A stretch of 64,000 nt of DNA from an uncultured Acidobacteriaceae bacterium (GTDB taxonomy: Bacteria; Acidobacteriota; Terriglobia; Terriglobales; Acidobacteriaceae): the NCBI GenBank assembly GCA_963753005.1, contig CAVWAM010000001.1, positions 457,773 to 521,772 of the forward strand, written 5' to 3'. Under the pieces are notes generated by a model. It saw only the letters and a list, made by a program, of their open reading frames with translations. It was not told where the DNA came from and made no database searches. The position numbers and the translations under genes are program-made. How positions within the stretch are numbered: the stretch's first letter is position 1; every line of letters starts with the position of its first letter. Shown one piece after another: positions 1,080-50,698 of this stretch.

Positions 1080-1117
1080 GTGCAGCTCCTTGATGAGATG
1101 AGGCAACAGCGCAGGTT

Positions 1118-1423
1118 CTATTGCTCAGGATCGTCGGTTTGTTTCGGTTGCGGCGGAGCGCTTGGCTGAGCTGCGGCATCCAGGCTGGCCAGCGCCACGG
1201 CTCGCTCCAGATCGCCGAACTGGTGCAGCCGGCGCGCCACCACAGCCAGTAGCCGCGCACGATAGACAACGATCCTTTCCACCACCTCCGCAATGTCCTC
1301 CCGCACGATCAGCTTTTCCCCGTTGATCAAGGTCAGCATGGTGTCCGGAGAGGCCTCGGCAGTCTTGATCAGGTCGCTGTTCACCACCATCGGGCGGCCG
1401 TTCAGCCGGGTCAGTTCGATCAT
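1118..1423 (-). CDS. flbD: Flagellar protein FlbD
   Basis: ORF 1118..1444. From ATG 1423 (AAGGAG upstream) it reads MIELTRLNGRPMVVNSDLIKTAEASPDTMLTLINGEKLIVRE, a typical FlbD N-terminus. It sits directly upstream of motA. Confidence 0.8.
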   Translation of the reverse strand: MIELTRLNGRPMVVNSDLIKTAEASPDTMLTLINGEKLIVREDIAEVVERIVVYRARLLAVVARRLHQFGDLERAVALASLDAAAQPSAPPQPKQTDDPEQ

Positions 1424-1444
1424 GGCCCATCTCCTTCGCGGCAC

Positions 1445-1471
1445 TTATCGGCAAACGCGGGGAAAGGTTAA
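1445..1471 (-). promoter_or_regulatory. Candidate sigma28 (FliA) promoter for flbD-motA-motB
   Basis: The minus strand reads TTAACCTT-N11-GCCGATAA. The -10 element matches perfectly (plus-strand ttatcggc at 1445-1452) and the -35 octamer matches TAAAGTTT at 5/8. It lies about 20 nt upstream of the flbD ATG. Confidence 0.5.
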
Positions 1472-1528
1472 AAAAGTAAAACAATTGGGACAGAACTGTC
1501 CCCCGGCAGGACACAAAATGCGCAAGCG

Positions 1529-1555
1529 TAAAGTCCCAAAGGGCCGCGCCGAAAA
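1529..1555 (+). promoter_or_regulatory. Candidate sigma28 (FliA) promoter for fliC
   Basis: TAAAGTCC-N11-GCCGAAAA against the consensus TAAAGTTT-N11-GCCGATAA (6/8 and 7/8, correct spacing). About 110 nt upstream of the fliC ATG. Confidence 0.65.
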
Positions 1556-1666
1556 AGGGGCCAGATGCGACGGCACCAAGCCGGCAGCAGCTACCCACGG
1601 CCAGAATAAGATGGGGGCACTCTCGGACAAGGGCCGCAAATCACCGCATCCAACAAGGAGAATCCC

Positions 1667-2947
1667 ATGTCCCTGGGTGTCTTGAACAACCTCTCCGCGG
1701 TGTATGCGGAGAACAACCTCAACAACACAAACAACAGCCTTTCGAAGACGCTGCAGCAGTTGTCTTCAGGGTCCAAGATCAACTCCGGCGCCGACGATGC
1801 CGCCGGTCTTTCGTTGGTCGACGGCCTTCAGGCCAACCAGACGGCGCTCGCCCAGTCGCAGACCAACGCTCAGGAAGGCGTAGGTCTGTTGCAGGTCGCT
1901 GATGGCGCACTCTCGCAGGTCACAACCCTGCTCAACCGTGCTGTTACGCTGGCCACCGAGGCCTCCAACGGCACGCTCAACAGCTCGCAGGATTCGGCGG
2001 CAAACCAGGAGTACCAGTCGATTCTGTCCGAGATCAACAACATCGGCACCACGACCACCTACAACCAGCAGCAGGTCTTCGGTGGAGGACAGGTCGGCGT
2101 CTACACCGGCGATTCGTCCAACACGGGCGCATCCCTGAACGACGTGAACATTTCCACGCTGTCTTCCTCCAATCTGGGAGATACAGGCGGCGCGATGTCG
2201 TATAGCTCGGGAGAGAATGTGTTCCTGGATCTCTCGAACGGCACCGGCCAGACGACCAACGCCTCGCTCACCGATACCATCCAATCCACAACGCTGACCA
2301 TCACCTACAAGAACCCCGACAACTCCACCGGCTCTGTGGTAACCAGTGCGGCCACGACGATTGGCGGGCTGATCAACGCCATCAACGCCTCCGGGCGCGG
2401 GTTGACGGCCACGTTTACCAGCGCGGCGGCCGCGGGCGATGCAGGCGGCGGCACCGACATGGGCATCATGATTTCGGGCAATGTAGGCACGGCGGCGCCA
2501 ACCACCTCAAAGCAGGAGATCGGGATCACGACCGGCGGCTACGATACCAGTCAAAGCGCGACCGCGGCCTCCGCTCTGGTGGCCGACAACAACGGCGGCA
2601 TCGCGACCATCAGCTACGCGGCAACCGGCCACGGTAGCCTGAACGGTACCGATCTCACCAACCAGGGGAACGCCCAAAGCGCGTTGACCGCGCTCAACAC
2701 GGCCATCACCGATGTTGCAGCGCAGGACGGCTACGTCGGCGCGCAGATCAACACGCTGAACGCCGTAAGCCAGGTGCTCTCAACGCAACAGGAAAACGTC
2801 ACTTCGGCGCAGAACGCGGTCCAGGCCACCGACTACGCGTCGGCCAGCTCCAACATGTCCAAGTACGAAATTCTGAGCCAGACCGGCATCTCGGCCCTGG
2901 CCCAGGCCAACAGCGTACAGCAGGAAGTCCTCAAGCTGTTGCAATAA
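1667..2947 (+). CDS. fliC: Flagellin
   Basis: 426 aa. Conserved flagellin N-terminus (LSSGSKINSGADDAAGLSLVDGLQANQTALAQSQTNAQEGVGLLQVADGAL) and C-terminus (...ILSQTGISALAQANSVQQEVLKLLQ), with a Ser/Thr/Gly-rich variable middle. Confidence 0.95.
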   Translation: MSLGVLNNLSAVYAENNLNNTNNSLSKTLQQLSSGSKINSGADDAAGLSLVDGLQANQTALAQSQTNAQEGVGLLQVADGALSQVTTLLNRAVTLATEASNGTLNSSQDSAANQEYQSILSEINNIGTTTTYNQQQVFGGGQVGVYTGDSSNTGASLNDVNISTLSSSNLGDTGGAMSYSSGENVFLDLSNGTGQTTNASLTDTIQSTTLTITYKNPDNSTGSVVTSAATTIGGLINAINASGRGLTATFTSAAAAGDAGGGTDMGIMISGNVGTAAPTTSKQEIGITTGGYDTSQSATAASALVADNNGGIATISYAATGHGSLNGTDLTNQGNAQSALTALNTAITDVAAQDGYVGAQINTLNAVSQVLSTQQENVTSAQNAVQATDYASASSNMSKYEILSQTGISALAQANSVQQEVLKLLQ

Positions 2948-3000
2948 TCCGGAGTCCCCGGCGGCGGGCGGCTCGCAGAGCCGGGGCCGCTGGGGTGGAG

Positions 3001-3027
3001 TGAACAAATTGGCGGCAATGCCGATAA
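3001..3027 (+). promoter_or_regulatory. Possible sigma28 promoter for fliD-fliS (weak -35)
   Basis: Perfect GCCGATAA at 3020-3027, but the -35 octamer TGAACAAA matches only 3/8. It lies immediately upstream of the fliC terminator hairpin, which is an awkward position. Confidence 0.3.
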
Positions 3028-3034
3028 CCAAAAT

Positions 3035-3064
3035 GGGGCGTCTGCCGGACGCCCCTCTTTGCTT
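3035..3064 (+). terminator. Rho-independent terminator after fliC
   Basis: GGGGCGTC (3035-3042), loop tgccg, GACGCCCC (3048-3055), followed by TCTTTGCTT. Confidence 0.6.
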
Positions 3065-3156
3065 GGGTCAACACCAGCCCCGGTCATGAGATTTCTCTCA
3101 TCCGGTTCACGGCGCAGTTGGTTCATGGGCTGCATGGCTTTTGCGTGGAGGCATGA

Positions 3157-5589
3157 ATGGGCACAGTGGGATTGAGCTTCGGGTCGCCGACCAGCGGCGC
3201 AGGCTTCAACGTCAGCTCCACCGTGGCCGAAATTGTCGGCAATCTTCAAAACGTCGAGACGCCCTGGAAGAACCAGTTGACGGCGCTGGAAAGCCAGGAC
3301 ACGGTGATCTCGAATCTGGGCACGCTGTTCTCGAATCTCTCCAACGATTTGAGTTCCCTGACGGATTTTCAAGGGATCATGGCGCAAAAAGAGGGTTCGA
3401 GCTCCGATACAAGCGTGCTCGAGCTGACTACGGCCTCCTCTTCGGCCACGGCAGGCACGCACACGGTCGTTGTGAAAAATCTCGCCCAGACTTCCAGCGG
3501 CTACCTGGCGGAGATCGCCAACAGCGCCGATAAACTGTCGGGCTCCATCACGCTGCAGGTCGGCAGCGGCAACGCGCAAACCATCGCTCTCAACTCCTCC
3601 GACAACACCCTCTCCGGCTTGGCATCGGCCATCAACAAGTCCGGCGTCGGCGTCACGGCCAGCGTGCTCACCGACGCCAGCGGCTCGCGCCTCAGCCTGG
3701 TCTCCGGCACTTCCGGCGCCGGCGGCAACATCGTCGTCACCGGCAATTCGCTCGCCGCCGCCGCCGCCAACACCCTCGGCTATACGGGAACCGCGGGAAC
3801 TCCCACCTCGAACTCCACCGGCACGCTTTCGCCGGTGTCGAGCCTGAGCGCCGCGCTCTCCGGAACCATGTCCATTCAGGTCGGCAGCGCAACGGCGATA
3901 CCGATCGACATGAGCGACGTGAGCACGGTCGAGGGCGGCGCGACGCTCTCCGACCTTGAGAATTACATCAATTCCACCTTCACGACGCAGGGGGTCCAGG
4001 CCTCCATTGTCGCCAACAGCGACGGCACATCGAGCCTCCAGCTCAACTCCCAGACTCCCGGCGCGGCCGGCACGCTCACCGTCACGTCGAGCCTCGTCGA
4101 CCCCGCAACTGCGCTGGGCTATACCTCCGCCGTCACCGGCTCCAACGCCAGCCTGACGGTAGACGGCGTCAACCTCACCAGCGCGTCCAACACGGTCAGC
4201 AATCTCATTCCCGGCGTCACCTTCCAGTTGCTCGCGCCCAGCGCCGGGGAATCCGATGGCAGCCTCGAGCCGGTGCAGGTCGTCATCGCCAACGACAACA
4301 GCGGCGTCGAAAGCACGATCAACCAGATGGTCAACGACTACAACTCGCTGATCGGCGCCATCAACACGCAGGAGGGCAGCACCAGTTCCGGCACTCCCGA
4401 GCCGCTCTTCGGCTCGCCCACCCTCTCCTTGCTGCAGGAACAGCTCCTGAACGGCTTGAATACGGAAAATCCCAACGGCTATCTGGATTCGGTTTCCTCG
4501 ACCGCGAACACAACGCTGTCCGGCTCCATGACCATCCAGGTGGGAAGCGGGACAACCGAAACCGTCGTGCTCGGACCCGCGCCCAGTTCCCCGGCCGCCA
4601 ACACCATCTACACCGGCTCCGGCAGCGGCGCCTACACGCTGGCCGGCATCGCCGGCGCCATCAACTCGGCCGGCATCGGCGTCACGGCCGGCGTTGCCAC
4701 CAGCAACGGCGAGTCGACCCTGACGCTCACCTCGCAGACTGCCGGAGCGAGCGGAGCGCTCAGTGTTACCTCCTCCATCGCGGCCACCGCGCCCACCCCC
4801 CTGTCGTTCCAAAACGCCGGTTACACCGGTACAACCGCCGACAGCGGAACGCTGGGCACGGTCGCCGCCGGCAGCGACGCGCTCTCCGGCTCCATGACTT
4901 TCCAGGTCGGCGGCGGAATCACGGAAACCGTTGTGATCGGCGCCGCGCCCAGCTCGCCCGCGGCCAACACGGTTTACACCGGAAGCGGAGCCGATACCCT
5001 CTCCGATGTCATGAACGCCGTCAATTCGGCCAGCCTCGGCGTCAACGCCGCCCTCAATAGCGCCGGAACCGGCCTCACGCTGACCTCTTCGGCCAACGGC
5101 ATGGCGGGCGCGCTCGCGGTCGCCTCCCACCTCGTGGATACTACCAGCCCCACCACCACCACCCTGAACTACAACGCCTCATCCGACATCAACTACCTCA
5201 CGGCGCTGGGCATCAGCGTCAACAACGACGGCTCGCTCACCTTCGATGCCAACTCGCTCGATTCCCTGCTCAACACCGATTACAACGGAGTGGCGGGGTT
5301 TTTCCAGAACGCGAACAGTTGGGGGCAGAGCTTCGCCAACATGCTGACCAACGCCGGCACAAGCTCCTCCACCGGAATTCTGAAGCTGGCCCAGTCCTCG
5401 AACAGCACCATCGAGTCCACGCTGAACGCGGAGATATCGAAAGAGAACGCCTACATCTCGGCGCAGCAGAAGAGCCTGACGGCAGAGCTGAACCAGGCCA
5501 ACGAAATCCTGCAGCAGTTGCCCACCGAGTTGCAGGGCATGGACGAGCTCTACTCGGCGATCACCGGCTACAACCAGCAAAAGGGCTGA
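3157..5589 (+). CDS. fliD: Flagellar filament cap protein FliD (unusually long, 4 internal modules)
   Basis: 810 aa. FliD-like N-terminus (FNVSSTVAEIVGNLQNVETPWKNQLTALESQDTVISNLGTL) and C-terminus (...SKENAYISAQQKSLTAELNQANEILQQLPTELQGMDELYSAITGY). Position is fliC-fliD-fliS. Confidence 0.9.
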   Translation: MGTVGLSFGSPTSGAGFNVSSTVAEIVGNLQNVETPWKNQLTALESQDTVISNLGTLFSNLSNDLSSLTDFQGIMAQKEGSSSDTSVLELTTASSSATAGTHTVVVKNLAQTSSGYLAEIANSADKLSGSITLQVGSGNAQTIALNSSDNTLSGLASAINKSGVGVTASVLTDASGSRLSLVSGTSGAGGNIVVTGNSLAAAAANTLGYTGTAGTPTSNSTGTLSPVSSLSAALSGTMSIQVGSATAIPIDMSDVSTVEGGATLSDLENYINSTFTTQGVQASIVANSDGTSSLQLNSQTPGAAGTLTVTSSLVDPATALGYTSAVTGSNASLTVDGVNLTSASNTVSNLIPGVTFQLLAPSAGESDGSLEPVQVVIANDNSGVESTINQMVNDYNSLIGAINTQEGSTSSGTPEPLFGSPTLSLLQEQLLNGLNTENPNGYLDSVSSTANTTLSGSMTIQVGSGTTETVVLGPAPSSPAANTIYTGSGSGAYTLAGIAGAINSAGIGVTAGVATSNGESTLTLTSQTAGASGALSVTSSIAATAPTPLSFQNAGYTGTTADSGTLGTVAAGSDALSGSMTFQVGGGITETVVIGAAPSSPAANTVYTGSGADTLSDVMNAVNSASLGVNAALNSAGTGLTLTSSANGMAGALAVASHLVDTTSPTTTTLNYNASSDINYLTALGISVNNDGSLTFDANSLDSLLNTDYNGVAGFFQNANSWGQSFANMLTNAGTSSSTGILKLAQSSNSTIESTLNAEISKENAYISAQQKSLTAELNQANEILQQLPTELQGMDELYSAITGYNQQKG

Positions 5590-5626
5590 GGCGCGCCCGA
5601 TTTGCCTGAAAAGGAGATGGCACGGA

Positions 5627-6085
5627 ATGGGGGATTATCGCCAACACGCGCTGGACGGCGCCTCGGCTGTCGACCTTGTCGTGGCGCTCTACGACGGCAT
5701 CATCCGCTTTTTGTATGCGGCCATTGCGGCGGTCGATCGCGGCGACGCCGACGGCCGCAGAGCCGCGGTCAAGCGCGCGCTTGACATCATCATTCATCTG
5801 CAGGCGCGGCTGCGCATGGATATGGGCGGCCGGCCGGCCCAGGCGCTCAGCGATTTCTATGCCGCCATCTTCGCCCAGGTTCTGCAGGCATCGCAGTCGG
5901 CCTCCAGGGCGAAATTCGAGCATGCCATCGCCTGCGTGAAGAACGTGCGCGACGCCTGGCGCGAAGTGGCCAAGGATCCGGAGGCAAACTCCGTCTCGCC
6001 GCGCGTGCTCGTCATGCCGCAGCCCGCGCCGCTGAGCGCCGAAACGGCGTTGGATGCGCCTGGATCGTCAAGCTGGACGGCCTGA
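5627..6085 (+). CDS. fliS: Flagellin-specific chaperone FliS
   Basis: 152 aa. AVDLVVALYDGIIRFLYAAIAAVDRGD...RALDIIIHLQARL...LSDFYAAIFAQVL is FliS-like. Sits directly after fliD. Confidence 0.85.
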   Translation: MGDYRQHALDGASAVDLVVALYDGIIRFLYAAIAAVDRGDADGRRAAVKRALDIIIHLQARLRMDMGGRPAQALSDFYAAIFAQVLQASQSASRAKFEHAIACVKNVRDAWREVAKDPEANSVSPRVLVMPQPAPLSAETALDAPGSSSWTA

Positions 6086-6118
6086 CTCGAGCGCCAGCTC
6101 GCCGGCTCTCTGTCTTCC

Positions 6119-6184
6119 AGCTCCGCCAACTCCGCTAACCCCGCCAACTCCGCTAACCCCGCCAACTCCGCTCGCCCCGCCGCC
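6119..6184. repeat. Tandem array of 9-bp units (CTCCGCCAA/CTCCGCTAA/CCCCGCCAA)
   Basis: agCTCCGCCAACTCCGCTAACCCCGCCAACTCCGCTAACCCCGCCAACTCCGCTCGCCCCGCCGCC. It fills the convergent gap between fliS and the ABC exporter and ends at the exporter's stop codon. Confidence 0.9.
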
Positions 6185-8031
6185 TATCCCGCGACCGTCA
6201 GCTCCTCTTCGAGTTGCTGCTTCTGATAGAGGCTTGCGTAGTAACCGTCGAGTGCCAGCAGTTCCTCGTGCCGTCCGATCTCGACGATCATGCCCTTGTC
6301 GAGCACCGCGATGCGGTCGGCGTTGCGCACCGTCGACACGCGGTGCGAGATGAGGAGGGTGGTTGTGTTGGCCGTGTAATTGCGCAGACCTCCAAGAATC
6401 CGCTCTTCCGTGTAGGTGTCTACGCTGGCCAGTGCGTCGTCGAGGATCAGGATGGCGGGGCGGCGCAACAACGCACGGGCGATGGCCGAGCGCTGTTTTT
6501 GCCCGCCGGAGAGCGTGACGCCGCGTTCGCCCACCATGGTTTCAAAGCCCTGCGGAAATTCCTCGAACTCCCGCCGGATGTGCGCTGCACCGGCCGCTTC
6601 CAGCAGCTCTTCGGCGCCGGCGCGAGGCGCCCCAAAGGCCAGGTTTTCGCGGATGGTTTCGCTGAACAGGAAGGTTTCCTGCGGCACCATGCCGATGTTG
6701 CGGCGCAGCACGGCCAGCGGGTAATCGCGGACCGGCCGCCCATCGATCAGGAGCGATCCTTGAGGCGCTTCGTAGAGGCGCGTGATCAAATTTACCAGCG
6801 TGGACTTGCCGCAACCGGTGGGGCCTACGATGGCCAGGCTCGACCCCGCGGGAATGTGGAGCGTGATGTCGCGTAGCACCGGGGTCCCCACGGACGGACC
6901 TTTGTCCGTGGGGTGGAGTACCGGGGTCCCCACGAACAGGTCTTCGTTCGTGGGGTGCAGCGCCGGGCTTTGATCGCGGTCCTCGCCGTAGCCGAACGTC
7001 AGATGACGGAATTCGATCTCGCCCTGCAGTTGGTGATCGGCCAGGATCGCGGGATCGGCGGAGCGGTCATCGATTCCCGGCTCGGCCTTGAGCAATTCGT
7101 CGATGCGCTTCACCGAAGCGGTGCCGCGCTGGAAGATGTTGATCACCCAGCCCACGGCGATGATGGGCCAGATCAGCAGGATCATGTAGGTGTTGAAGGC
7201 GACGAACTGGCCGACCGATATGCGGTGCGCAAGGACCTGGTGCCCGCCGGCCAGCAACGTAATCACCATCGACACGCCAAGGATGAACTCGAGCGTGGGC
7301 CACAACATGCCCATCAGTTGCACCAAGCGCAGCGCGCGCCCGATGTATTGCCGGTTGAGCCGCTCGAAGAGGCCGATCTGCGACTCTTCGCGCGCGAAGG
7401 CCCGGATCAGCCGCACGCCCGAGTAGTTTTCCTGCGCCTGCGCGGAGATGTCGGAGAAGCTGGCCTGGATGCGCTCGAAGCGCTCGTGAATCTTGCGCCC
7501 TAGATACTGGATCAGGATGCTGGCCAGCGGCATGGGCGCCAGCGCCACCAGCGTCAGATAAGGACTGATCCTCAGCATGAAGAACAGCGCGAAGACGCTG
7601 AGGAAGACTGTGTTGGCGCTGTACATCAGAGCTGGGCCGAGCAGCATGCGCACGGCGTTCAGGTCGTTGGTCATGCGCGCCATGATGTCGCCGGTGCGGT
7701 AGCGCTGGTAGAAGCCCGAGTCCTGGATTTCCAGCTTGCGGAAGAGGTCGTTGCGCAGGTCGAATTCGATTTCGCGCGAAATGCCGATCAGGATCCAGCG
7801 TTGCGCATAGAGAAAGACGCCCTTCGCCAGGCTGATGCCGACCAGAATCAACGCAAACAGCAGAATGAGTTTCCCGGTGGTCCCTTTCTCGATCCGGTCC
7901 ACGGCCATGCCCAGAACTCTCGGAAACTGCACCGCGACGATATTCGTGGCCACGCACGCCAGCGTGCCCCGCACGTATCCCCAGCGGTAGCGGCGCATGT
8001 ATTTGTAAAGAGGGGCGAGGTCGCCGAGCAT
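6184..8031 (-). CDS. ABC exporter, fused permease and ATPase (MsbA/multidrug type half-transporter)
   Basis: 615 aa with a 6-TM domain and an NBD carrying Walker A GPTGCGKST, signature LSGGQKQR and Walker B ILILDDA. It carries an in-frame repeat insertion (see 6879-6962). Confidence 0.9.
   Translation of the reverse strand: MLGDLAPLYKYMRRYRWGYVRGTLACVATNIVAVQFPRVLGMAVDRIEKGTTGKLILLFALILVGISLAKGVFLYAQRWILIGISREIEFDLRNDLFRKLEIQDSGFYQRYRTGDIMARMTNDLNAVRMLLGPALMYSANTVFLSVFALFFMLRISPYLTLVALAPMPLASILIQYLGRKIHERFERIQASFSDISAQAQENYSGVRLIRAFAREESQIGLFERLNRQYIGRALRLVQLMGMLWPTLEFILGVSMVITLLAGGHQVLAHRISVGQFVAFNTYMILLIWPIIAVGWVINIFQRGTASVKRIDELLKAEPGIDDRSADPAILADHQLQGEIEFRHLTFGYGEDRDQSPALHPTNEDLFVGTPVLHPTDKGPSVGTPVLRDITLHIPAGSSLAIVGPTGCGKSTLVNLITRLYEAPQGSLLIDGRPVRDYPLAVLRRNIGMVPQETFLFSETIRENLAFGAPRAGAEELLEAAGAAHIRREFEEFPQGFETMVGERGVTLSGGQKQRSAIARALLRRPAILILDDALASVDTYTEERILGGLRNYTANTTTLLISHRVSTVRNADRIAVLDKGMIVEIGRHEELLALDGYYASLYQKQQLEEELTVAG
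6879..6962. mobile_element. Two tandem 42-bp hairpin units inside the ABC exporter CDS
   Basis: CCGGGGTCCCCACGGAC-ggaccttt-GTCCGTGGGGTGGAGTA followed by CCGGGGTCCCCACGAAC-aggtcttc-GTTCGTGGGGTGCAGCG. Each has a perfect 10-bp stem. Translated in-frame as LHPTNEDLFVGTPV and LHPTDKGPSVGTPV. Confidence 0.8.
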
Positions 8032-8131
8032 GGTTCTATTTTACGATTGATGCCACTCCAACTAAATCCGACGCAGAAAACCGCTCAGTTCTTCATCTCA
8101 TCGCGATCCGCTCTCCAAAAAATCCCGCCCA

Positions 8132-8190
8132 CTGTTCCCTGTTCCCTGTTCCCTGTTCCCTGATCCCTGTTCCCTGTTCCCTGTTCCCTG
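8132..8190. repeat. Heptamer tandem array (CTGTTCC)n, equal to (GGAACAG)n on the minus strand
   Basis: Eight consecutive 7-bp units, one variant being CTGATCC. It ends 6 nt from the lptFG stop codon (8197). The G-rich strand is the lptFG sense strand. Confidence 0.95.
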
Positions 8191-8196
8191 TCTTTC

Positions 8197-10554
8197 TCAC
8201 GTCGGCGTCCTCAGCAGCAGATACCCGCCCACCAGCCCGAACAACACATCGGCGGACCATGCGGCCATCGCTGCGGGCAGGTAATTCACATTGCCCATAG
8301 CCCCGAAAAGCCCATCTACCACCCAGTAGGCAAGCGCCACGGCGATGGCCACGGCGATGCCGGCGAGCGAGCCTCGGCGGCCCATCGACAGCGCAAAGGG
8401 AATCGCCAGCACCGCCATGACCACAGCAATCAGCGGGAAGGCGAGCTTGTGCCACAGGGCGACGCTCAGGCGCTTGGTGTCGAAGCCGCTTTGCCTCAGG
8501 TCGCGGATGTAGCGGTCGAGCTGGCCAAAGCTCATCTCCTGCGATTGCAGATCCTCTTTCTTGAAGTAGTCCGGCCCTGGGTGGATTTCGGGAAACGATG
8601 TCTCGAGGAATGTCCGGTACGTCGTAACGTTGGCGCCCTGGATGCCGCGCGCCCACCCGTTCTCGAAGCGCCATGTGCCGGAATCGGCGTCCCATACGGC
8701 TCTCTTTGCAAAGATGCGCCGCGTCAGTTCGAAGGCCGAAGGATCGAACTCGAACACGGAAAGATTGGCGAACTCATTGCTGTCGGGATCGAAGAACTCG
8801 TAGTAGTAAATGCTGCCCGGCTCGCCGGGCAGCGGCTTGGGGCCAAAGATCCACTTCTGCTCGGGATGCAGGAACGTCTGCGGCGGCCGGCCCTTGATCA
8901 CGTTGCGCAACGCCTCCTGCCTGCGGTTGGCCTGCGGCAGATAGTACTGGTCGAAGAGGAAGAGGCTCACGGCCAGGCACGCCGTGATCGACACAATGGG
9001 AATCACCAACCGGTAGAGGCTGATGCCGGTGGCCTTCATGGCCACGATCTCGCTGTTGCGGTTGAGCACGCCGAAGGTTGCCAGTGCGGCGATCAGAACG
9101 GCCAGCGGCGCAATCTGGTAAAGCATGCTGGGAGTGAGATTCAACAGATACTCGCCCACGATGCCGAGCGCGATGTGGTTGCGCAGAATGTCGCCGATCA
9201 GATCGAAGAACGTAAAGACAATCATCAGCAGCACAAACCCGGCCAGAACCAGCAGGAACATGCCCACAAACTCGCGCACGATGTACTCGTCGAGGATGCG
9301 CGGAAAGATTCCGCGGGACCGTGCCTTAGCCGCTGCGCCGCCTCGCGTCTGGAATCTGTCGAGAAGTCCGCTGAGCGGGAATCCATCCGGCTTGACCGCG
9401 TCCGTGATTCTGGACGGCCGCGCGATCCACGCCGAGATGGCGCTCAGAATCCGGCCGCCCGTCGCCATCTGCCACAGCAGAAAGGTTCCCGCCGCGGCAA
9501 AGAGCAGGTTCGCCGACCACACCGCGAAAAAGGCTGGCAGTTTGCTCTGATGGCCGAGAGCAATGCCCGTGGACGAAAGAAAGTAGTAGACGAACACCAG
9601 CAGAATCGTGAACACGAATCCCGAACTCTTGCCGCCGCGGCGCGAGGCTACGCCCAGGGGAACGCCTACCAGCATCAGCACCAGGCAAGCGGCGGGAAAG
9701 GCGAACCGGTTGTGCAGTTCAATCAGGAATCGCTTGTCGCCGGGGCCGTGGATGCGGCCGAGCAACGCGCTCAAGGGCATGGCATACAGCGCCGTGTCCA
9801 TGCGCCCCAGGTGCACGTCGTTCTGCTGCCCCAGCACCAGCGGCAGATCGGTGGTCGTGAACGTGGAGATATTGGACTGCCCCGGCTGGTCGGCCACGGT
9901 TTCGTCGCGCACGCCGTCGCGCAGCCGCATCAGCAGTTCCTCCGTGTTGTCGGTCACCACGGTGGCGGAGGCGGCGGTAGTGATGATCGGATTGGCGGGG
10001 TCAGAGACGTCGGCCATAAAGACCTGGCGCCAGTTGGCCGCACCCGTGCCCGAACGCACGTCCTGCACATAGAGAACGAAATTGCGAAAGTCTTCGTAGA
10101 AGACGCGCGGCTCAATCTCGTAGGAGGCCTGCAACGTCTCCAGCGACTGCTGCAGATCGATGATCGCCTGGTTGGCGCGGGGCGCGAGATAAAGCGAGTT
10201 GCCCAGCCCCAGCAGCGTGCCCGCAACGGCCACAATCGACGCCACGCGCACAAAGTAGCCGATGCCCAGCCCCGACGCGCGCATGGCGATGATCTCGCTG
10301 TCCGAGGCCAGCCGGCTCAGGCCCAGAAGCACGCCCCACAGCACCGCCATGGGAATCGTCACTTTGAACAGATTGGGCAGCGTGAACAGGAAAACCTGCG
10401 CCGCGTCGGCCCACGTCGAGCTGCTCCGCACCACCACCTCCAGGATGTGCGGCAGCAGCGGCATGAACAGAATGAACGTGAAGAGCGCGCAGCCGATCAG
10501 CGTGAGGGAGAGAATCTCGCCGAGAATGTAGCGGGTGAGGATGCGCACAAACAT
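8197..10554 (-). CDS. lptFG: Fused LptF-LptG-like LPS export permease (two YjgP/YjgQ halves in one ORF)
   Basis: 785 aa. The first half starts MFVRILTRYILGEILSLTLIGCALFTFILF. The second half starts near residue 410 with FPRILDEYIVREFVGMFLLVLAGFVLLMIVFTFFDLIGD. Both starts look like LptF/G N-termini, and each half is about 390 aa. Confidence 0.8.
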   Translation of the reverse strand: MFVRILTRYILGEILSLTLIGCALFTFILFMPLLPHILEVVVRSSSTWADAAQVFLFTLPNLFKVTIPMAVLWGVLLGLSRLASDSEIIAMRASGLGIGYFVRVASIVAVAGTLLGLGNSLYLAPRANQAIIDLQQSLETLQASYEIEPRVFYEDFRNFVLYVQDVRSGTGAANWRQVFMADVSDPANPIITTAASATVVTDNTEELLMRLRDGVRDETVADQPGQSNISTFTTTDLPLVLGQQNDVHLGRMDTALYAMPLSALLGRIHGPGDKRFLIELHNRFAFPAACLVLMLVGVPLGVASRRGGKSSGFVFTILLVFVYYFLSSTGIALGHQSKLPAFFAVWSANLLFAAAGTFLLWQMATGGRILSAISAWIARPSRITDAVKPDGFPLSGLLDRFQTRGGAAAKARSRGIFPRILDEYIVREFVGMFLLVLAGFVLLMIVFTFFDLIGDILRNHIALGIVGEYLLNLTPSMLYQIAPLAVLIAALATFGVLNRNSEIVAMKATGISLYRLVIPIVSITACLAVSLFLFDQYYLPQANRRQEALRNVIKGRPPQTFLHPEQKWIFGPKPLPGEPGSIYYYEFFDPDSNEFANLSVFEFDPSAFELTRRIFAKRAVWDADSGTWRFENGWARGIQGANVTTYRTFLETSFPEIHPGPDYFKKEDLQSQEMSFGQLDRYIRDLRQSGFDTKRLSVALWHKLAFPLIAVVMAVLAIPFALSMGRRGSLAGIAVAIAVALAYWVVDGLFGAMGNVNYLPAAMAAWSADVLFGLVGGYLLLRTPT

Positions 10555-10614
10555 GCCCTGCGCTTAGTTTAGCGTGCCGCCTCGCCGGCGCGGTACATTG
10601 ATGGTGCCTGGCCG

Positions 10615-10658
10615 GAAGCGGTTTTGAAAGGGCGCGAGTTTACTCGTGCCCTAAACGC
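10615..10658. repeat. REP-like palindromic unit (GTTTTGAAAGGGCRCGAGTTTACTCGTGCC family)
   Basis: gaagcggttttgaaagggcgcgagtttactcgtgccctaaacg. Same family as the two tandem copies at 14851-14936. The core is an inverted repeat, CGAGT/ACTCG extended. Confidence 0.85.
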
Positions 10659-10729
10659 ACAATATAACTGCGGCTTTAGCCGCTGTGGGATGTTCCTTTG
10701 CAACTGACCCGTTTGGAGCGGTTGGTTGA

Positions 10730-10766
10730 CTCGCCAACTCGCTAACTCGCCAACTCGCTAACTTGC
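10730..10766. repeat. Tandem array of 8-bp units (CTCGCCAA/CTCGCTAA)
   Basis: CTCGCCAACTCGCTAACTCGCCAACTCGCTAACTTGCC. The copA stop codon (10742-10744) and its last ~7 codons lie inside the array. Confidence 0.9.
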
Positions 10767-13078
10767 CGTATTTCCGGCTGCCACCCTCGCAGCCGCAAAC
10801 TGTTCCCCAGCACGCACACCGAGCTCATCGCCATCGCCGCGGCGGCCAGCCACGGCGTGAGCAGAAGGTGAAACGCGGGATACAGCAGCCCGGCGGCAAG
10901 TGGAATGCCAATCAGGTTGTAGCCCACCGCCCATCCCAGGTTCTGCCGCATGATCCGCAGCGTCTGGCGCGCCAGCGCCAGCGCGGCCGGAATCCCGCCC
11001 GGCTCCGTGCGCAGCAGCAGCACGTCTCCGGCCTCCTGCGCCAGGTCCGCGCCCGTCCCCATCGCGATGCCCGCGTCCGCCTGCGCCAACGCCGCCGCAT
11101 CGTTGATCCCGTCGCCCACCATCGCGATCCGCAGCCCAGCCTTCTGCATCTCGCGAATGCGCGCCAGTTTCCCCGCCGGATCGAGGCTGGCTTCCACCTC
11201 CGTGATTCCCGCCTGCCTCGCGATCGGCGCCGCCGCCTCGGCCGAGTCGCCGGTCAGCATCAGCACCCGAAGCCCCGCTTGACGCAGCGTAGCCATCGCA
11301 CTCGCCGCCTCCGGCCGCAGCGCATCGCGCGCATCGAAATACGCGGCAGGCGCGTTGTCCAATGCCATCCACAACCGCGTCACGCCCGGCTCCGCAACCT
11401 CAACATTGCCCGGAAGCGCGATCCCAAACTCCCGGAACATCGCCTCATTCCCCAAAAGGCAATCGTGCCCTTCCACGCGCGCGGTCAGGCCGCGGCCGGG
11501 CAAAATCTGCGCATCCTCCGCCGCCCTCCACTCGATCCCCCGCCCGCGCGCGGCATCGACAATTGCATGCGCCAGCGGATGATTCGATCGCTCCTCCGCC
11601 GCAGCCGCTATCCGCAGCAGCTCGTATTCTCGCTCCCTAGTCCCTACGTCCCTAGTCCCTGCCGGGGTCCCCGGCGAGCGGTCCGTGCTCGCTGGGGTGG
11701 CTAGTCCCTGTACTTTTTCCAGCACCGGCCGCCCCACCGTCAGCGTCCCCGTCTTGTCCAGCACAATCGCGTCCAGATGCCCCAGCCGCTCCAGCGCCTC
11801 GCCGCCCTTGAACAGCACGCCAAGCTGCGCGCCTCGGCCCACGGCCACCGTCAGCGCGGCAGGCACGGCCAGGCCCATCGCGCACGGGCACGCGATAACC
11901 AGCACCGCCACGGTATTCGCCAGCGCCGGCGGCAGCGAGCGCGCCGCCACGAGCCACGCCACAAACGTGATCGCCGCCAGCCCCAGCACCACCGGCACAA
12001 AAATCGCGCTGGCGCGGTCGGCCAGCCGTTCCATCGGCGCGCGCGAGCTTTGCGCCTGGTCCACCATCCGCGCAATCTGCGCGATCACCGTCTGCTCGCC
12101 CAGCGACTCCGCCCGGCAAACCACCGCGCCGTCGTAGTTCAGCGAACCCGCCAGCACGCGCCCGCCCACGCCGCGCTCCAGCGGCGTCGGCTCGCCCGTC
12201 AGCATGGACTCGTCCACCGTCGTGCGCCCCTCCAGGATCGTCGCGTCCACCGGGAAGCGCTCGCCGGGCAGAACCACCACGCTGTCGCCCGGCCGCACCT
12301 CATCGAGCGGCACGACGGTCTCGACGCCATCCACCAGGCGCCGCGCGGTCACCGGCCGCAGCCGCGAAAGTGAATCGAGCGCCGCCAGCGCTCTGCGTTT
12401 CGCTCGCCCTTCCAGCGCCTTGCCCAGCAGCAGAAAGCCGAGAATCAGCAGAACCGCGTCGTAATAAATCTCGCGTCCCCGCTCTGGCGCCACCGTCGCA
12501 TACGCCGAATACACGAACGCCACTGCGGTCCCCAGGCTCACCAGCGTGTTCATGTTGGTCGAGCCGTGGCGCAGAGCGCGCAGCGCGCTCGCATAGATCC
12601 CGCGCCCCGCCCAGGCGGCAACCACCGCCGTCATCGCCAGCAGAAACCAGCGCACACCGTCCGCCGGCAGCGCATAAAGCCACGGAAGCAGGCGCATCGC
12701 CAGGCGGTCCGGCCCGCTCATCTCGGTTCCCAGTGGCATGGCCAGCAGCATCGCCACAAATCCCGCCGCCAGCGTCACCCCCGCCTTCAAGTCCGCGCCC
12801 GCCGCCGCATCCTCGGCCCGCGCTGCTCCCTCGCCCGTGCGCGGCAACACGGCATCGTACCCCGCTCCGCGAATCGCTGCCACCAACTGCTCGGGCGCGG
12901 CCAGCGCCGGGTCAAACACCACGCTGGCCCGATGCGCCATCAGGTCCACGCGCGCTTGCTCCACGCCCGCCGTCGCGCGCAGCGCCTCCTCCACGTGATG
13001 CTGGCACGAGGCACAGGTCATGCCCAGGACCGGTAGGGTTAGCGATTCTCTAGTGTGCGCGGCCACGACTGGCTCCAA
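10742..13078 (-). CDS. copA: Copper-translocating P1B-type ATPase
   Basis: 778 aa. N-terminal HMA domain GMTCASC, then CPC in a TM helix, DKTGTLT, SNHPLA and GDGINDAAAL. Carries an in-frame repeat insertion (11634-11710). Confidence 0.95.
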   Translation of the reverse strand: MEPVVAAHTRESLTLPVLGMTCASCQHHVEEALRATAGVEQARVDLMAHRASVVFDPALAAPEQLVAAIRGAGYDAVLPRTGEGAARAEDAAAGADLKAGVTLAAGFVAMLLAMPLGTEMSGPDRLAMRLLPWLYALPADGVRWFLLAMTAVVAAWAGRGIYASALRALRHGSTNMNTLVSLGTAVAFVYSAYATVAPERGREIYYDAVLLILGFLLLGKALEGRAKRRALAALDSLSRLRPVTARRLVDGVETVVPLDEVRPGDSVVVLPGERFPVDATILEGRTTVDESMLTGEPTPLERGVGGRVLAGSLNYDGAVVCRAESLGEQTVIAQIARMVDQAQSSRAPMERLADRASAIFVPVVLGLAAITFVAWLVAARSLPPALANTVAVLVIACPCAMGLAVPAALTVAVGRGAQLGVLFKGGEALERLGHLDAIVLDKTGTLTVGRPVLEKVQGLATPASTDRSPGTPAGTRDVGTREREYELLRIAAAAEERSNHPLAHAIVDAARGRGIEWRAAEDAQILPGRGLTARVEGHDCLLGNEAMFREFGIALPGNVEVAEPGVTRLWMALDNAPAAYFDARDALRPEAASAMATLRQAGLRVLMLTGDSAEAAAPIARQAGITEVEASLDPAGKLARIREMQKAGLRIAMVGDGINDAAALAQADAGIAMGTGADLAQEAGDVLLLRTEPGGIPAALALARQTLRIMRQNLGWAVGYNLIGIPLAAGLLYPAFHLLLTPWLAAAAMAMSSVCVLGNSLRLRGWQPEIRQVSELAS
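11634..11710. mobile_element. Composite insertion inside copA: TAGGGAC-type short repeats plus a 39-bp hairpin flanked by a 10-bp direct repeat
   Basis: CTAGTCCCTG (11652-11661), then CCGGGGTCCCCGGCGAGCggtccgtGCTCGCTGGGGTGG (11662-11700), then CTAGTCCCTG (11701-11710). It is preceded by TCCCTAGTCCCTACGTCC. Translated as ...ATPASTDRSPGTPAGTRDVGTRE... Confidence 0.8.
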
Positions 13079-13087
13079 ACCTGCGGT

Positions 13088-13321
13088 TTATGATTCCAGA
13101 TGCGCGGTGTAACCGGCCTTGGCGATGGCCGCTATTGCCAGATCGATGGCCTGTTCGATCGGCGCGGGATCCTCGCTGGAAGTCAGCGTGGCCTTTCCCA
13201 CGCTCACCTCGTTCACCGCCACGCCGGGCGCGGAGGCGAGCGCCTGGCTTACTCGGCGCACACAGGAGCCGCAGTGCATTCCGTCGATCTTCAGTGTGAA
13301 CTCAGCCATTTCCCCTCCCAT
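13088..13321 (-). CDS. copZ: Copper chaperone CopZ (HMA domain protein)
   Basis: 77 aa. FTLKIDGMHCGSCVRRVSQAL contains the MxCxxC motif. Directly upstream of copA. The true start may be ATG 13309. Confidence 0.9.
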   Translation of the reverse strand: MGGEMAEFTLKIDGMHCGSCVRRVSQALASAPGVAVNEVSVGKATLTSSEDPAPIEQAIDLAIAAIAKAGYTAHLES

Positions 13322-13418
13322 CCGTCTCTATTTGATGATAGTGCCGTGCGCACGATTCCGCGCCGACCCGCGTTGCCACGCGCCGCCGCTGCCACACGAA
13401 TGTAGAAAGGCTCTGTGC

Positions 13419-13886
13419 ATGACAAGCAAAATCGAACGCGAATACCCTCAGGCGCCGCTCGTTGGCGTGGGCGCCGTCATCGTCTACCAGGACCGCGTGC
13501 TGCTTGTCCGCCGCGCCAACGAGCCGCTCAAGGGCCAATGGACGTTGCCCGGCGGCATGTTGGAGCTGGGCGAAACCCTCGCCCAGGGCGTTGCGCGCGA
13601 GGTCCGCGAAGAATCCGGCCTCGAAGTGGAGGCCGTCGAACTGGTCGAGGTTCTGGACCGCATCCATCGCGAAGCCGGCCGCGTCCGCTTCCACTACGTC
13701 ATCGCCGATTATCTGTGCCGCGTAACCGGCGGCACGTTGCGCGCAGCCTCCGATGCCGGCGCGGTTCGCTGGGTCGAGCGCGCCGAATGGAACAGCCACA
13801 GCGCCCTCGTCCTCGACCCCATCGCCGTGCGCGTGATCGAAAAAGGCTGGCAAAGAGCAAGGGCTCTCGGAAAGGAATGGCGATAG
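13419..13886 (+). CDS. Nudix hydrolase
   Basis: The ORF 13119..13886 has a spurious N-terminal extension. From ATG 13419 it reads MTSKIEREYPQAPLVGVGAVIV... and carries the Nudix box GGMLELGETLAQGVAREVREESGL. Confidence 0.85.
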   Translation: MTSKIEREYPQAPLVGVGAVIVYQDRVLLVRRANEPLKGQWTLPGGMLELGETLAQGVAREVREESGLEVEAVELVEVLDRIHREAGRVRFHYVIADYLCRVTGGTLRAASDAGAVRWVERAEWNSHSALVLDPIAVRVIEKGWQRARALGKEWR

Positions 13887-13890
13887 AGCG

Positions 13891-14796
13891 ATGAAATGGC
13901 TATGGAGAGTGCTTTGGACCGTGCCTGTGCTGGCGTTGATTGCCGGCATCGGTTTCTACATGCGCCCGGTCCGTTGCTTCAATGCCTGGATGTTTCTCCG
14001 GGAGGATTTCAGCGGCGTCCAGAGCCGCTCGGTGCGCGTCGCCGGCTATCGCATGCACTATCTCGCCGAGGGCCCGGCATCCGGCCCCGCCGTCGTTCTC
14101 GTGCACGGGCTCGGCGGCCGCGCCGAGGATTGGCTCAATCTTGCGCCGTGTTTGACCAGGGCGGGCTTTCGCGTCTACATGCCCGACCTCATCGGCTACG
14201 GGCGCAGCGAGCGGCCGCCCGATTTCTCCTACTCCGTCCGCGACGAAGCCATCCTCGTTGTCGGCTTCATGGATGCGCTCGGTCTCAAGCAGGTCGAGCT
14301 TGGCGGCTGGTCGATGGGCGGGTGGATCGTTCAGCTCATTGCCCAGGAGCACCCCGAGCGAGTCAGCCGGCTGATGCTCTTCGATGCGGCCGGTCTCGAC
14401 GTAAAGCCGTCGTGGGATACCAGGCTCTTCACGCCAACCACGCCCGCCCAATTGGCCGCGCTGGACGCTCTGCTCATGCCCCATCCGCCGCGGGTTCCGG
14501 CGTTCCTCGCGCGCGATATTGTGCGCCTCTCGAACAGGAACGGCTGGGTGGTCAAGCGCGCCATCGCATCCATGCTCACGGCGCAAGATGTGACCGACAC
14601 TCTGCTGCCGCAGCTCAAGATGCCGGTGCTCATCGTCTGGGGCTCTCTCGACCACATCACTCCGCTCGACCAGGCGCAGACCATGCACAAGCTTATTCCG
14701 CAATCCGAGCTGGACGTCTTCGACGGCTGCGGCCACCTGGCCCCGGACCAGTGCGCCGGCCAAATCGGCCCAAAGGTCGTCCAATTCGCGCAATAG
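13891..14796 (+). CDS. Alpha/beta-fold hydrolase with N-terminal TM/signal anchor
   Basis: 301 aa. Contains VVLVHGLGGRAEDW, the nucleophile elbow GWSMGG, and a C-terminal GHLAP. Confidence 0.8.
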   Translation: MKWLWRVLWTVPVLALIAGIGFYMRPVRCFNAWMFLREDFSGVQSRSVRVAGYRMHYLAEGPASGPAVVLVHGLGGRAEDWLNLAPCLTRAGFRVYMPDLIGYGRSERPPDFSYSVRDEAILVVGFMDALGLKQVELGGWSMGGWIVQLIAQEHPERVSRLMLFDAAGLDVKPSWDTRLFTPTTPAQLAALDALLMPHPPRVPAFLARDIVRLSNRNGWVVKRAIASMLTAQDVTDTLLPQLKMPVLIVWGSLDHITPLDQAQTMHKLIPQSELDVFDGCGHLAPDQCAGQIGPKVVQFAQ

Positions 14797-14850
14797 GGCC
14801 ACGACTTCACGCGCCGGCAAACGCAATCGCGGCGGGGTAGTGTCTCAGTT

Positions 14851-14936
14851 TGAAGTCGTTTTGAAAGGGCACGAGTTTACTCGTGACGCAAATTGAAGTC
14901 GTTTTGAAAGGGCAAGAGTTTACTCGTGCCGCAAAC
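14851..14936. repeat. Two tandem 43-bp REP-like units
   Basis: TGAAGTCGTTTTGAAAGGGCACGAGTTTACTCGTGACGCAAAT followed by TGAAGTCGTTTTGAAAGGGCAAGAGTTTACTCGTGCCGCAAAC. A third copy lies at 10615-10658. Confidence 0.95.
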
Positions 14937-15917: not shown

Positions 15918-15953
15918 TGTTCTGTCTCTGAAGTTCGCATCAAAAACAAAGCA

Positions 15954-16032
15954 GTCATCCTGAGCGGAGTTTGGCCCGCATTTGGGCCAAACGGAGTCGA
16001 AAGCCTGGCCTGAGCGAAGTCGAAGGGGACCT
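15954..16032. repeat. REP-like element family GTCATCCTGAGCGGAG-hairpin-GGAGTCGAAGG
   Basis: GTCATCCTGAGCGGAG-tttggcccgcatttgggccaaac-GGAGTCGAAAGcctggCCTGAGCGAAGTCGAAGGGGACC. A second copy lies at 18204-18248. Confidence 0.85.
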
Positions 16033-16641: not shown

Positions 16642-17030
16642 ATGTGCCTCGCCATTCCAGGAAAAGTCGAAGAGATTACCAGCGACGGCATGATCCGCGT
16701 AGGCCGCGTCAACTTCGGCGGCGTGGTCAAGAACGTCTGCCTTGACTACGTACCCGAGGTCGAGGTCGGCGACTACACCATCGTCCACGTCGGCTTTGCC
16801 ATCTCCAAGATCGACGAGGAGACCGCCCGGCAAACCCTTGACGACTTCCGCGCCCTGGGTGTGCTCGACGACGAACTGGCCGGCGAGGAAGAGGCCTTTG
16901 CCCGCGCAGCCAACCGGCCGCAATCGAGTTGCCCCGATGGAAGCTGTTGCAATAAATCCAGCCGCGCCGGTTCCAACTCCGCTAGCCCCGCTAACTCCGC
17001 TAGCTCCGCTAACTTCGCTGCCGGCAGCCA

Positions 17031-18170: not shown

Positions 18171-18203
18171 TGTTTCGCTTGCGCCTTTCGAATCCTGAAT
18201 GCT

Positions 18204-18248
18204 GTCATCCTGAGCGGAGGTCGCCCGGACGACCGGAGTCGAAGGGTC
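18204..18248. repeat. REP-like element (GTCATCCTGAGCGGAG-gtcgcccggacgacc-GGAGTCGAAGGGTC)
   Basis: Second copy of the 15954-16032 family, located in the 328-bp hypD-hypE spacer. Further filler motifs follow, such as CCTGCCCTGAGCTTGCCGAAGGGC. Confidence 0.85.
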
Positions 18249-18498
18249 TTCGGTTGTCTTTCGCGAAGAGAAGCGGTCAGGCCGCGGAAGCGATACGCAC
18301 TTTGCTGCAAAGAAGACGATCACAGCGGCACGATGTGTGAGGATACGACTTCAAAGCCTGCCCTGAGCTTGCCGAAGGGCGCCGTAAGCCCGGCCAAACC
18401 AATGCGGGGCCTTAGCCCCTGTGCTCACAGCCTTCGCCTTGGCAAGAAAGGGCTGGAGCTGGAATCAATAAGCTGGAAGTTGGGAGTTCTCGAACGCA

Positions 18499-50475: not shown

Positions 50476-50530
50476 GAAATTGAGGCAGGAAAAAATTCTT
50501 TATTTAATTTCTCCTTTCAGAAGGCAGCAG

Positions 50531-50566
50531 GGTTGGCGGAGTTAGCGGGGTTGGCGGAGTTAGCGC
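50531..50566. repeat. 9-bp unit array (GGTTGGCGGAGTTAGCGG x2), reverse complement of the 6119/16975 family
   Basis: GGTTGGCGGAGTTAGCGGGGTTGGCGGAGTTAGCGC. Confidence 0.9.
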
Positions 50567-50665: not shown

Positions 50666-50698
50666 CAGGGACATAGGGACGTAGGGACCAGGGAAAGA
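50666..50698. repeat. TAGGGAC-type short tandem repeats
   Basis: CAGGGACATAGGGACGTAGGGACCAGGGAAAG. Nearly identical to the sense-strand sequence embedded in copA (reverse complement of 11634-11661). Confidence 0.9.

Follow-up and report, generated by a model that had tools for sequence, protein, structure and literature searches.

The Rickettsia palindromic elements (RPE), brought to light by Ogata and colleagues in 2000, are said to be selfish palindromic DNA lying in frame within protein-coding genes, in loops compatible with the protein fold. In-frame repeats of the repetitive extragenic palindromic (REP) type have been described in Opitutus terrae, Rickettsia conorii and Thauera, with intragenic tagged REPs often found in DNA repair or replication genes (PMC3733652), and REP-like hairpins occur in about 600 copies in the acidobacterium Solibacter usitatus (PMC6006769). 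Here we describe a hairpin of this general kind within copA, the copper ATPase gene of an uncultured Acidobacteriaceae bacterium, in a stretch of 64,000 nucleotides (contig CAVWAM010000001.1) hereafter called the window. The copA feature is best explained, with a probability of roughly 0.7, as one copy of a large interspersed family of palindromic DNA repeats of about 40 nt, of REP/RPE type, selfish and tolerated in surface loops. Literature searches with motif strings and for acidobacterial palindromic repeats returned no description of this family, which is apparently an undescribed repeat of a REP/RPE-like phenomenon. The likening to the in-frame Rickettsia elements made in a preliminary description of the locus is apt, and its claim of novelty seems to hold for the family itself but not for the phenomenon, in-frame palindromic repeats being already known elsewhere.

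The host gene encodes a P1B-type Cu+ ATPase (minus strand, 10742..13078, an open reading frame (ORF) of 778 codons, with homologues carrying PF00403, PF00122 and PF00702). The insert lies between the DKTGT and SNHPLA motifs, and the ORF stays open through it, reading ...VQGLATPASTDRSPGTPAGTRDVGTRE... Read directly from the window, the plus strand gives CTAGTCCCTG at 11652-11661, CCGGGGTCCCCGGCGAGCGGTCCGTGCTCGCTGGGGTGG at 11662-11700 and CTAGTCCCTG again at 11701-11710, letter for letter the flank, 39-bp centre and flank noted before. The insertion consists of CCGGGGTCCCC-GGCGAGC-GGTCCGT-GCTCGCT-GGGGTGG plus 2-3 junction bases, and its boundaries can slide by 2 nt. Folded as single-stranded DNA, the copy reaches -15.6 kcal/mol on the plus strand (z = -3.4) and -10.7 kcal/mol on the minus strand, and a covariance model of the family matches it at 11662-11702 with 39.5 bits (E = 4e-8).

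Two relatives about 92% identical to the window and syntenic with it over ~22 kb (L001 and L002) carry an empty allele, CAGGGACT|AGGGACTAGGGACG, in which a heptamer array is present and uninterrupted. In the filled allele CAGGGACT is followed by a block running from AGCCACCCC to GGGGACCCCGGC and then by AGGGACTAGGGACG (alignment A1). The indel is exactly 42 bp, or 14 codons (11661..11702, plus strand, an exact 42-column gap against both relatives), and not 39+10, and its junction is ambiguous by only 2 nt. Because the GGGACTA array is already there in the empty allele, the identical 10-bp flanks are not the target-site duplication they had been taken for; judged from the aligned alleles, the apparent direct repeat arises from the heptamer array, pre-existing and translated, which continues on either side of the insert. 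The 42-bp block thus sits in a microsatellite that was already being translated (minus strand, 11634..11660, with units GGGACTA and GGGACGTA on the coding strand; TRF period 7, 3.7 copies) and that resumes beyond the insert at 11701-11710. The intergenic TAGGGAC-type repeats pointed out earlier at 50666-50698 are also present, as a plus-strand NAGGGAC heptamer microsatellite like the one flanking the copA insert, with more at 50755-50802.

The hairpin contributes the peptide ATPASTDRSPGTPA (A460-A473, 14 codons, read on the minus strand), and the remainder of the extra sequence is heptamer microsatellite. Against fully empty orthologues, CopA has about 22 additional residues; the preliminary description was right that the frame stays open and too high in counting ~27. 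Predicted tryptic peptides of the insert-bearing CopA are VQGLATPASTDR and SPGTPAGTR, and for the second host gene of the window, an ABC exporter, they are those spanning VLHPTDK. The filled copA allele, with one substitution in the loop, recurs in three independent Joint Genome Institute (JGI) metagenome assemblies (L003-L005). An exact-protein look-up with the window CopA (the 778-aa ORF) and with P0001 returned no record.

A scan of GTDB species-representative genomes with CCGGGGTCCCC-N18-24-GGGGTGSAG showed that copies beyond the window are plentiful, at least 119 genome blocks carrying the family pattern. Among the matches listed, ~105 are from Acidobacteriota, mostly metagenome-assembled genomes (MAGs) of Acidobacteriaceae, Terracidiphilus or Terriglobales from peat and soil, with Angelobacter, Vicinamibacterales and gp6 also represented and single MAGs contributing several blocks. 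A few blocks come from MAGs of Armatimonadota, Dormibacterota, Actinomycetota, Polyangia, Comamonadaceae, Defluviitaleaceae and Chlamydiae, for which mis-binning is possible; they score 22-49 bits with the covariance model, and several hold 2-3 copies per block. Our copy counts cover the 64-kb window and the fetched element-bearing loci, where a relaxed scan of 1.06 Mb of fetched DNA found 166 copies, and where ~26 matches in 0.75 Mb were unseeded.

The family pattern is CCGGGGTCCCC, a variable stem-loop and then GGGGTGGAG, and the consensus of alignment A4 (63 gaplessly aligned copies of the commonest length) is CCGGGGT|CCCC...GGGG|TGGAG, with an invariant 5' CCGGGGT and an invariant 3' tail TGGAG. 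The stem is 10-13 bp long and starts with CCCC, its inner 6-9 pairs vary yet stay complementary (ACGGAC/GTCCGT, AGCGAC/GTCGCT, AAAGAGC/GCTCTTT and ACCGCGC/GCGCGGT are examples), and the loop has 3-8 nt. On the strand reading CCGGGG...GGAG, an extra lower helix CCG/TGG forms with GGGT bulged. The stated helix pairs in 96.2% of the cells of A4, against 80.4% after column shuffling and 44-53% when the partner is slid; 87 cells are changed on both sides of a pair, against 28.6 in shuffles, none of 500 of which reached 87, and such double changes occur at 6 of the 10 pairs. The first variable pair is of the R:T kind (A-T 69, G·T 42, G-C 16). An unbroken stem of at least 10 bp is present in 98 of 137 distinct interiors but in only 2% of shuffles, and the fold z-scores of the copies range from -2.8 to -3.6. 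Tandem arrays with periods of 41-47 nt also occur. A scan of window positions 1-14000 against Rfam 15, with E values up to 10, gave no relevant family.

The hairpin is often the centre of a longer composite, either GGGTGCCCCAGGT, hairpin, GAGATCCCTCGCATTTGGGGACCTGGGA or GTCATCCTGAGCGAA, hairpin, GAGAAGCGAAGGATC. In the composite with GGGTGCCCCAGGT/GAGATCCCTCGCATTTGGGGACCTGGGA flanks, of ~80 nt, a 9-bp outer helix (CCCAGGTCC/GGACCTGGG) is accompanied by another small hairpin, itself covarying (TCCC..GGGA versus TCTC..GAGA); this composite is shared by many genomes (L011, L014, L022, L031, L035, L076, L077, L096, L097, L099 and other loci), sometimes inside genes. Neither the composite element nor an acidobacterial RayT turned up in a plasmid collection.

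Within the window, GGGGTCCCC-N10-40-GGGGTG matches three times, against 0.01 expected from shuffles, and the covariance model run without filters finds four copies in 64 kb, all on the plus strand; neither the model nor the relaxed scan found any further copy in the window. Two of the four are the copies already reported from the ABC exporter gene (6879-6962). That gene (6184..8031, minus strand, ABC_membrane plus ABC_tran) carries in frame the insert ALHPTNEDLFVGTPVLHPTDKGPSVGTP, directly ahead of PVLRD, a strand at the beginning of the ATPase domain. The insert is encoded by two plus-strand tandem units at 6879..6918 (stem ACGGAC/GTCCGT; TRF period 42; 60.6 bits) and 6921..6960 (60.8 bits), the stem of the second, ACGAAC/GTTCGT, being a compensatory change relative to the first. 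ABC exporter orthologues fall into length classes of 583, 597-605, 611-617, 626-629 and 644-652 residues, corresponding to 0, 1, 2, 3 and more copies of the 14-residue unit VLHPTDKDLSAGTP. At this site the 42-bp units have thus been amplified in tandem, from 0 to ~5 among orthologues (P0241-P0360; loci L206, L207, L208 and L023), and some have decayed: the three units of L208 are near-consensus and nearly identical, and those of L207, as well as unit 1 of L006, are decayed. Such decay in place argues against a local function.

The fourth copy is an intergenic plus-strand one with a long branched loop, CCGGAGTCCCC...GGGGTGGAG (2949..3000; 21.9 bits, E = 1e-3), which begins 2 nt past the flagellin stop codon. 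Orthologous copies of 1-3 units lie in the same place in L006, L023 (3 units), L028 and L117 (2 units), and the site is empty in L001 and L003. The copA site is filled in the window and L003 and empty in L001 and L006, and the ABC exporter site is filled in the window, L006 and L023, with units also in L207 and L208, and empty in L001, L003 and L028. Close relatives therefore differ at orthologous sites by gain and loss of the unit as one discrete block; for copA, this includes the empty site in close relatives that had been sought, which lacks exactly the 42 bp.

With genes called by a crude custom GC3-based caller, 40 of 159 copies (~25%) lie in frame within coding sequences, 24 antisense and 16 sense and in all three phases, and the other ~75% are intergenic (divergent 24, co-directional 22 and 20, convergent 18). 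Besides the window genes, nine hosts were borne out by Pfam as real genes, with domains flanking the insert on either side, namely UvrC, glycine dehydrogenase subunit 2 (GcvPB; two inserts), UvrD, EutB, aldehyde dehydrogenase, PriA, GntP permease (two inserts), FtsQ and Lhr, with the in-frame copies in loci L014, L034, L119 and L068 (and L031, L045, L092, L124 and L026). The presence of UvrC, UvrD, PriA and Lhr gives a lean towards DNA repair and replication genes, as for tagged REPs (PMC3733652). Among 142 copies, 76% are free of stop codons in all six frames, as are 33.5% of mononucleotide shuffles, a rough control given that the element ends are fixed and the sequence is palindromic. The element is read in different frames in copA and in the ABC gene, and a repeat maintained at the peptide level was ruled out: frames and orientations differ between copies, so the repeated entity is DNA and not peptide. 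Flank profiles show no fixed-length duplication, and most flanks bear no similarity to the element.

The orientation of copies shows no bias relative to flanking genes (54 versus 60), and a role as terminator or 3' untranslated region was unsupported by the orientation counts. Orientation does, in contrast, follow local GC skew: of 114 cases, 78 have the well-pairing strand on the strand of negative skew (p = 1e-4), as do 56 of the 71 in which |skew| is above 0.03. Wobbles on the CCGGGG...GGAG strand number 125 of the G·T/T·G kind against 26 A·C/C·A, or 26 against 7 when R:T and loop-edge positions are left out. The orientation by GC skew, the wobble asymmetry and the better fold of the plus strand together suggest that a single-stranded DNA state, not RNA, matters; either insertion chemistry or hairpin survival would then differ between leading- and lagging-strand templates. 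In the window itself, GC skew turns from negative (1-20 kb) to positive, with a cumulative minimum near 20 kb, and all four hairpin copies are on the plus strand of the negative-skew part; for the genes near ~20000, synteny with L006 points to hypothetical genes and a peptidase of the kumamolisin type.

In CopA, the insert lies in a loop that links the strand following DKTGT to the first helix of the nucleotide-binding domain. The same segment is ~8 residues long in solved CopA structures (3RFU 441-450, 2B8E 30-39, 3SKY 31-34), whereas the window CopA holds ~30 residues there. An AlphaFold model built with 40 close homologues, poor overall (mean pLDDT 57.9) and used only as weak support for the insert being coil, shows residues 453-477 as coil between strand 446-452 and helix 478-495, with pLDDT <50 over 458-478. 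The aligned CopA homologues, of 734 to 822 residues and, where named, from Terracidiphilus and other Acidobacteriaceae MAGs, have one hypervariable site, between GRPVL and E-x-DLLRMAAAAEERSNHPLA. Many orthologues are short at this site (EAVHGFAGHSEDDLL), P0005-P0007 have QGLGTRDVGTKE, and P0003 and the window have QGLATPAST[D/G]RSPGTPAGTRDVGT... Further contents of the orthologous loops are GNREQGT peptides, translated from CAGGGAA heptamers, and two or more additional hairpin repeats (LPPFRQNGGERMGHP and ...STPSAKADFAQDDN...). A homologous peptide in distant CopA orthologues had been named as grounds for rejecting a DNA insertion; in the orthologues aligned here, the loop has unrelated repeat-derived peptides or nothing. 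The finding of varied repeats, or of none, in the orthologous loops indicates that the CopA loop is a sink for small repeats of its genome.

Across dozens of orthologues (P0001-P0120), the CopA segment between GRPVL and ELLRMAAAAEERSNHPLA (window ~11590-11720) is a hot spot, which is empty in some, filled with translated heptamers in others (GNREQGTEK..., GTRDVGT...), and elsewhere occupied by as many as ~70 residues that derive from three or more distinct families of repeats; in the P0030 orthologue the loop contains a duplicated segment.

Compared with the REP/BIME (bacterial interspersed mosaic element) systems and tagged REPs (Di Nocera et al. 2013, PMC3733652), the family shares the imperfect palindromes of 20-40 nt occurring as singles, dimers and tandem clusters, the G·T stem pairs and subfamilies with different stems, and the minority of in-frame copies encoding roughly 14-30 residues. 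It does not belong to the GTAG or CGTC REP superfamilies, since either tag is absent beside the stem on both strands. It differs from the REP superfamilies further in its 11-nt 5' end, 9-nt 3' end and GGGT bulge, in having no enrichment downstream of convergent or co-directional genes, in its higher in-gene share (~25%), in the lack of any RAYT association found and in its acidobacterial host. With the RPE the family appears to share in-frame insertion in unrelated functional genes, loop sites, and presence or absence between close relatives; it is apparently unrelated in sequence and is set apart by size (RPE-1 spans ~100-150 bp, against a unit of 39-42 nt here) and by host, the RPE residing in reduced intracellular bacteria and the present family in free-living soil bacteria with large genomes, where most copies are intergenic.

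The hairpins of class 3 TnpA-Y1 genes in Acidobacteria and Planctomycetes (Quentin et al. 2018, PMC6006769) come from the same phylum and are likewise high-copy, atypical structures; here, however, no Y1 gene was seen next to any copy. The TIRYT terminal repeats GGGGWSAS (PMC6006769; PMC3733652) share G-runs with our element, in which GGGG[AT][CG] occurs three times, but the match does not extend beyond GGGGWS. The Solibacter-type foot is CnGA (PMC6006769), whereas the family has CGGG(GT), with CGGA confined to the fliC copy (2949) and a few rare variants. As a comparison of working principle only, IS200/IS605 transposition shares a hairpin with unpaired conserved nucleotides, the near-absence of target duplication seen at copA and an orientation that appears to correlate with the replication strand, while our element lacks a transposase gene as well as distinct left and right ends. 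Nor is it a classical miniature inverted-repeat transposable element (MITE) of the DDE-derived kind, given that no fixed-length target duplication was found. Cyanobacterial short tandemly repeated repetitive (STRR) heptamers are dispersed in intergenic spacers. The dispersed intergenic NAGGGAC, CAGGGAA and CTGTTCC heptamers of the window resemble them, but phylum and sequences are different, and here the heptamers are also translated in copA.

If the family is a selfish palindromic repeat as we propose, it would spread as DNA through a folded single-stranded intermediate recognised by a trans-acting enzyme. The likeliest enzyme would be an HUH/Y1 endonuclease of the RAYT- or TnpA-like kind, since both RAYT-like (TIRYT) and class 3 TnpA genes are known from Acidobacteria, with high-copy hairpins associated (PMC3733652, PMC6006769). 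A copy landing in a gene would be expected to survive only if it adds a multiple of three nucleotides (42 or 84 bp), brings in no stop codon and sits in a surface loop or linker. Its host protein would then bear a harmless loop of 14 residues rich in Pro, Gly and Thr, which would represent no adaptation of CopA.

Several observations weigh against this explanation. A regular expression for the HUH...Y motif gave 0 matches over ~1 Mb of element-bearing DNA, and tblastn of six RayT proteins against the ~1 Mb of element loci found no match. A RayT consensus retrieved real RayT proteins of up to 81% identity to it, of the helix-turn-helix (HTH)-bearing type, and none of their 80 metagenome loci contains the element, a null that says little because these loci are probably from phyla other than Acidobacteriota. 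The strand bias runs counter to the IS608 rule if it is the better-folding strand that is active. For seeded copies, the search pattern accounts in part for the conservation of the ends, although the hairpin lies outside the pattern, and the crudeness of the gene caller bears on the context counts. Finally, insertion junctions are not uniform, since copA has an ambiguity of at most 2 nt and the ABC site a 9-10 nt imperfect direct repeat, CCCGGTYCT, with a target that resembles the element's own inter-unit junction. The ABC repeat may be a real duplication, a junction-like target or a product of survivorship, the last being possible because the element end encodes T-P-V-L there and so restores the native PVL-RD motif. 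Besides these points, all-against-all clustering of 1359 ORFs from the element loci produced only common paralogue families and no recurrent neighbour.

The failure to find a transposase and the disagreement of the junctions leave spread without any dedicated transposase as a serious rival, though a rather unlikely one. In that case template switching, microhomology-mediated insertion or gene conversion at end-like sequences, followed by slippage, would place the units, and heptamer arrays and hairpin would be products of the same slippage-prone replication. The likeness of the ABC target AACCCGGTTCTGCGC to the inter-unit junction CCCCGG-TG-CTCCAC, that of the copA target (a GTCCCTR heptamer array) to the GGTCCCC end, a downstream flank weakly resembling the element's 5' end, the tandem arrays with periods of 41-47 nt and an orientation that seems to track the replication strand all fit such a route. 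It accounts poorly for the 11-nt and 9-nt tails, which stay invariant across many genera and in MAGs of other phyla while the stem varies, a pattern predicted by protein recognition and not by passive copying; most flanks, moreover, do not resemble the element, and the similarity at the ABC site can be the survivorship just mentioned.

It is also conceivable, if unlikely, that the family is not a RAYT-type REP but a distinct, phylum-spanning single-stranded DNA element with a conserved bulged hairpin, an as yet unidentified enzyme that recognises it, coupling to the replication strand and a sequence evolved towards translatability in six frames, which would let it colonise coding DNA. Were this so, the proteomes of Acidobacteriota would amount to a large natural loop-insertion experiment, the CopA N-domain loop and the hairpin of the ABC nucleotide-binding domain (NBD) being among its hot spots.

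A functional RNA element, for instance a 3' mRNA stabiliser, an RNase or protein site or an antisense structure, of which the in-gene copies would be by-products, seems improbable. The copy right after the flagellin stop codon does keep its position in five lineages in sense orientation, covariation is strong, and the wobble asymmetry is compatible with G·U pairs as in a transcribed hairpin. Against this, copies show no orientation preference relative to their neighbours, as reflected in the balanced intergenic classes (24, 22, 20, 18) and the 24 antisense and 16 sense in-gene copies, the well-pairing strand is antisense to the mRNA in both copA and the ABC gene, and the Rfam scan of window positions 1-14000 gave no matching family; in addition, units decay in place and close relatives lack copies without any replacement.

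That the inserted peptide is instead a selected, adaptive loop of CopA and the ABC exporter, the palindrome being incidental, is very improbable: the same DNA is used in different frames and strands in different genes and is mostly intergenic, the CopA loop of orthologues is filled with unrelated repeat-derived peptides or nothing, and the number of ABC units varies from 0 to ~5, even if the ORFs stay open and many orthologues contain the ABC unit VLHPTDKDLSAGTP. An artefact of assembly or sequencing, to which short repeats and microsatellites are prone, has a negligible chance of being the answer, misassembly at copA being ruled out because the same insert, of conserved frame and length, is present in the three independent metagenome assemblies L003-L005 and in P0001, the record of the window itself.

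Selfish palindromic DNA in genes, best documented in Rickettsia and known as scattered intragenic REPs from a few further genera, is thereby extended to Acidobacteriaceae, which rank among the most abundant bacteria of soil and peat, in the form of a family easily recognised by two invariant tails and a covarying stem, with about a quarter of the sampled copies in frame within housekeeping genes. Its natural filled, empty and amplified alleles could be used to study tolerance to loop insertion, the movement of repeats and the function of repeat-derived loops. In practice, such repeats inflate and fragment MAG assemblies, create length variants among orthologues and can give rise to spurious ORFs.

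Another dispersed family of hairpins, the second in the window, follows a like principle (GTCATCCTGAGCGGAG, variable hairpin, GGAGTCGAAGG) and has two intergenic plus-strand copies there (15953-16010 and 18203-18250). Other loci of Acidobacteriaceae have this GTCATCCTGAGCGGAG/GGAGTCGAAGG frame arranged around the CCGGGG...GGGGTGGAG hairpin, and one copy of the second family is translated (..DFAQDDN..) in the CopA loop of L006. The window also holds two tandem duplications, a 43-mer x2 with 95% identity (intergenic, 14850-14935) and a 23-mer x2 with 100% identity (55532-55577), which seem unrelated to the hairpin family. Many spacers of the window are filled by microsatellites of 7-9 nt, including CCAACTCCG, CTGTTCC x8.6, ACTCGCCA, CTCCGCTAG, CAGGGAC, CAGGGAA and CAGCTCT x13, at 6117-6181, 8132-8191, 10729-10767, 16975-17019, 50526-50565, 50755-50802, 55440-55477 and 55848-55941. 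These are mostly intergenic, with that at 16975-17019 lying within an ORF, and the one at 10729-10767 enters the copA stop codon, so the CopA C-terminus, which ends ..VSELAS, is itself repeat-derived.

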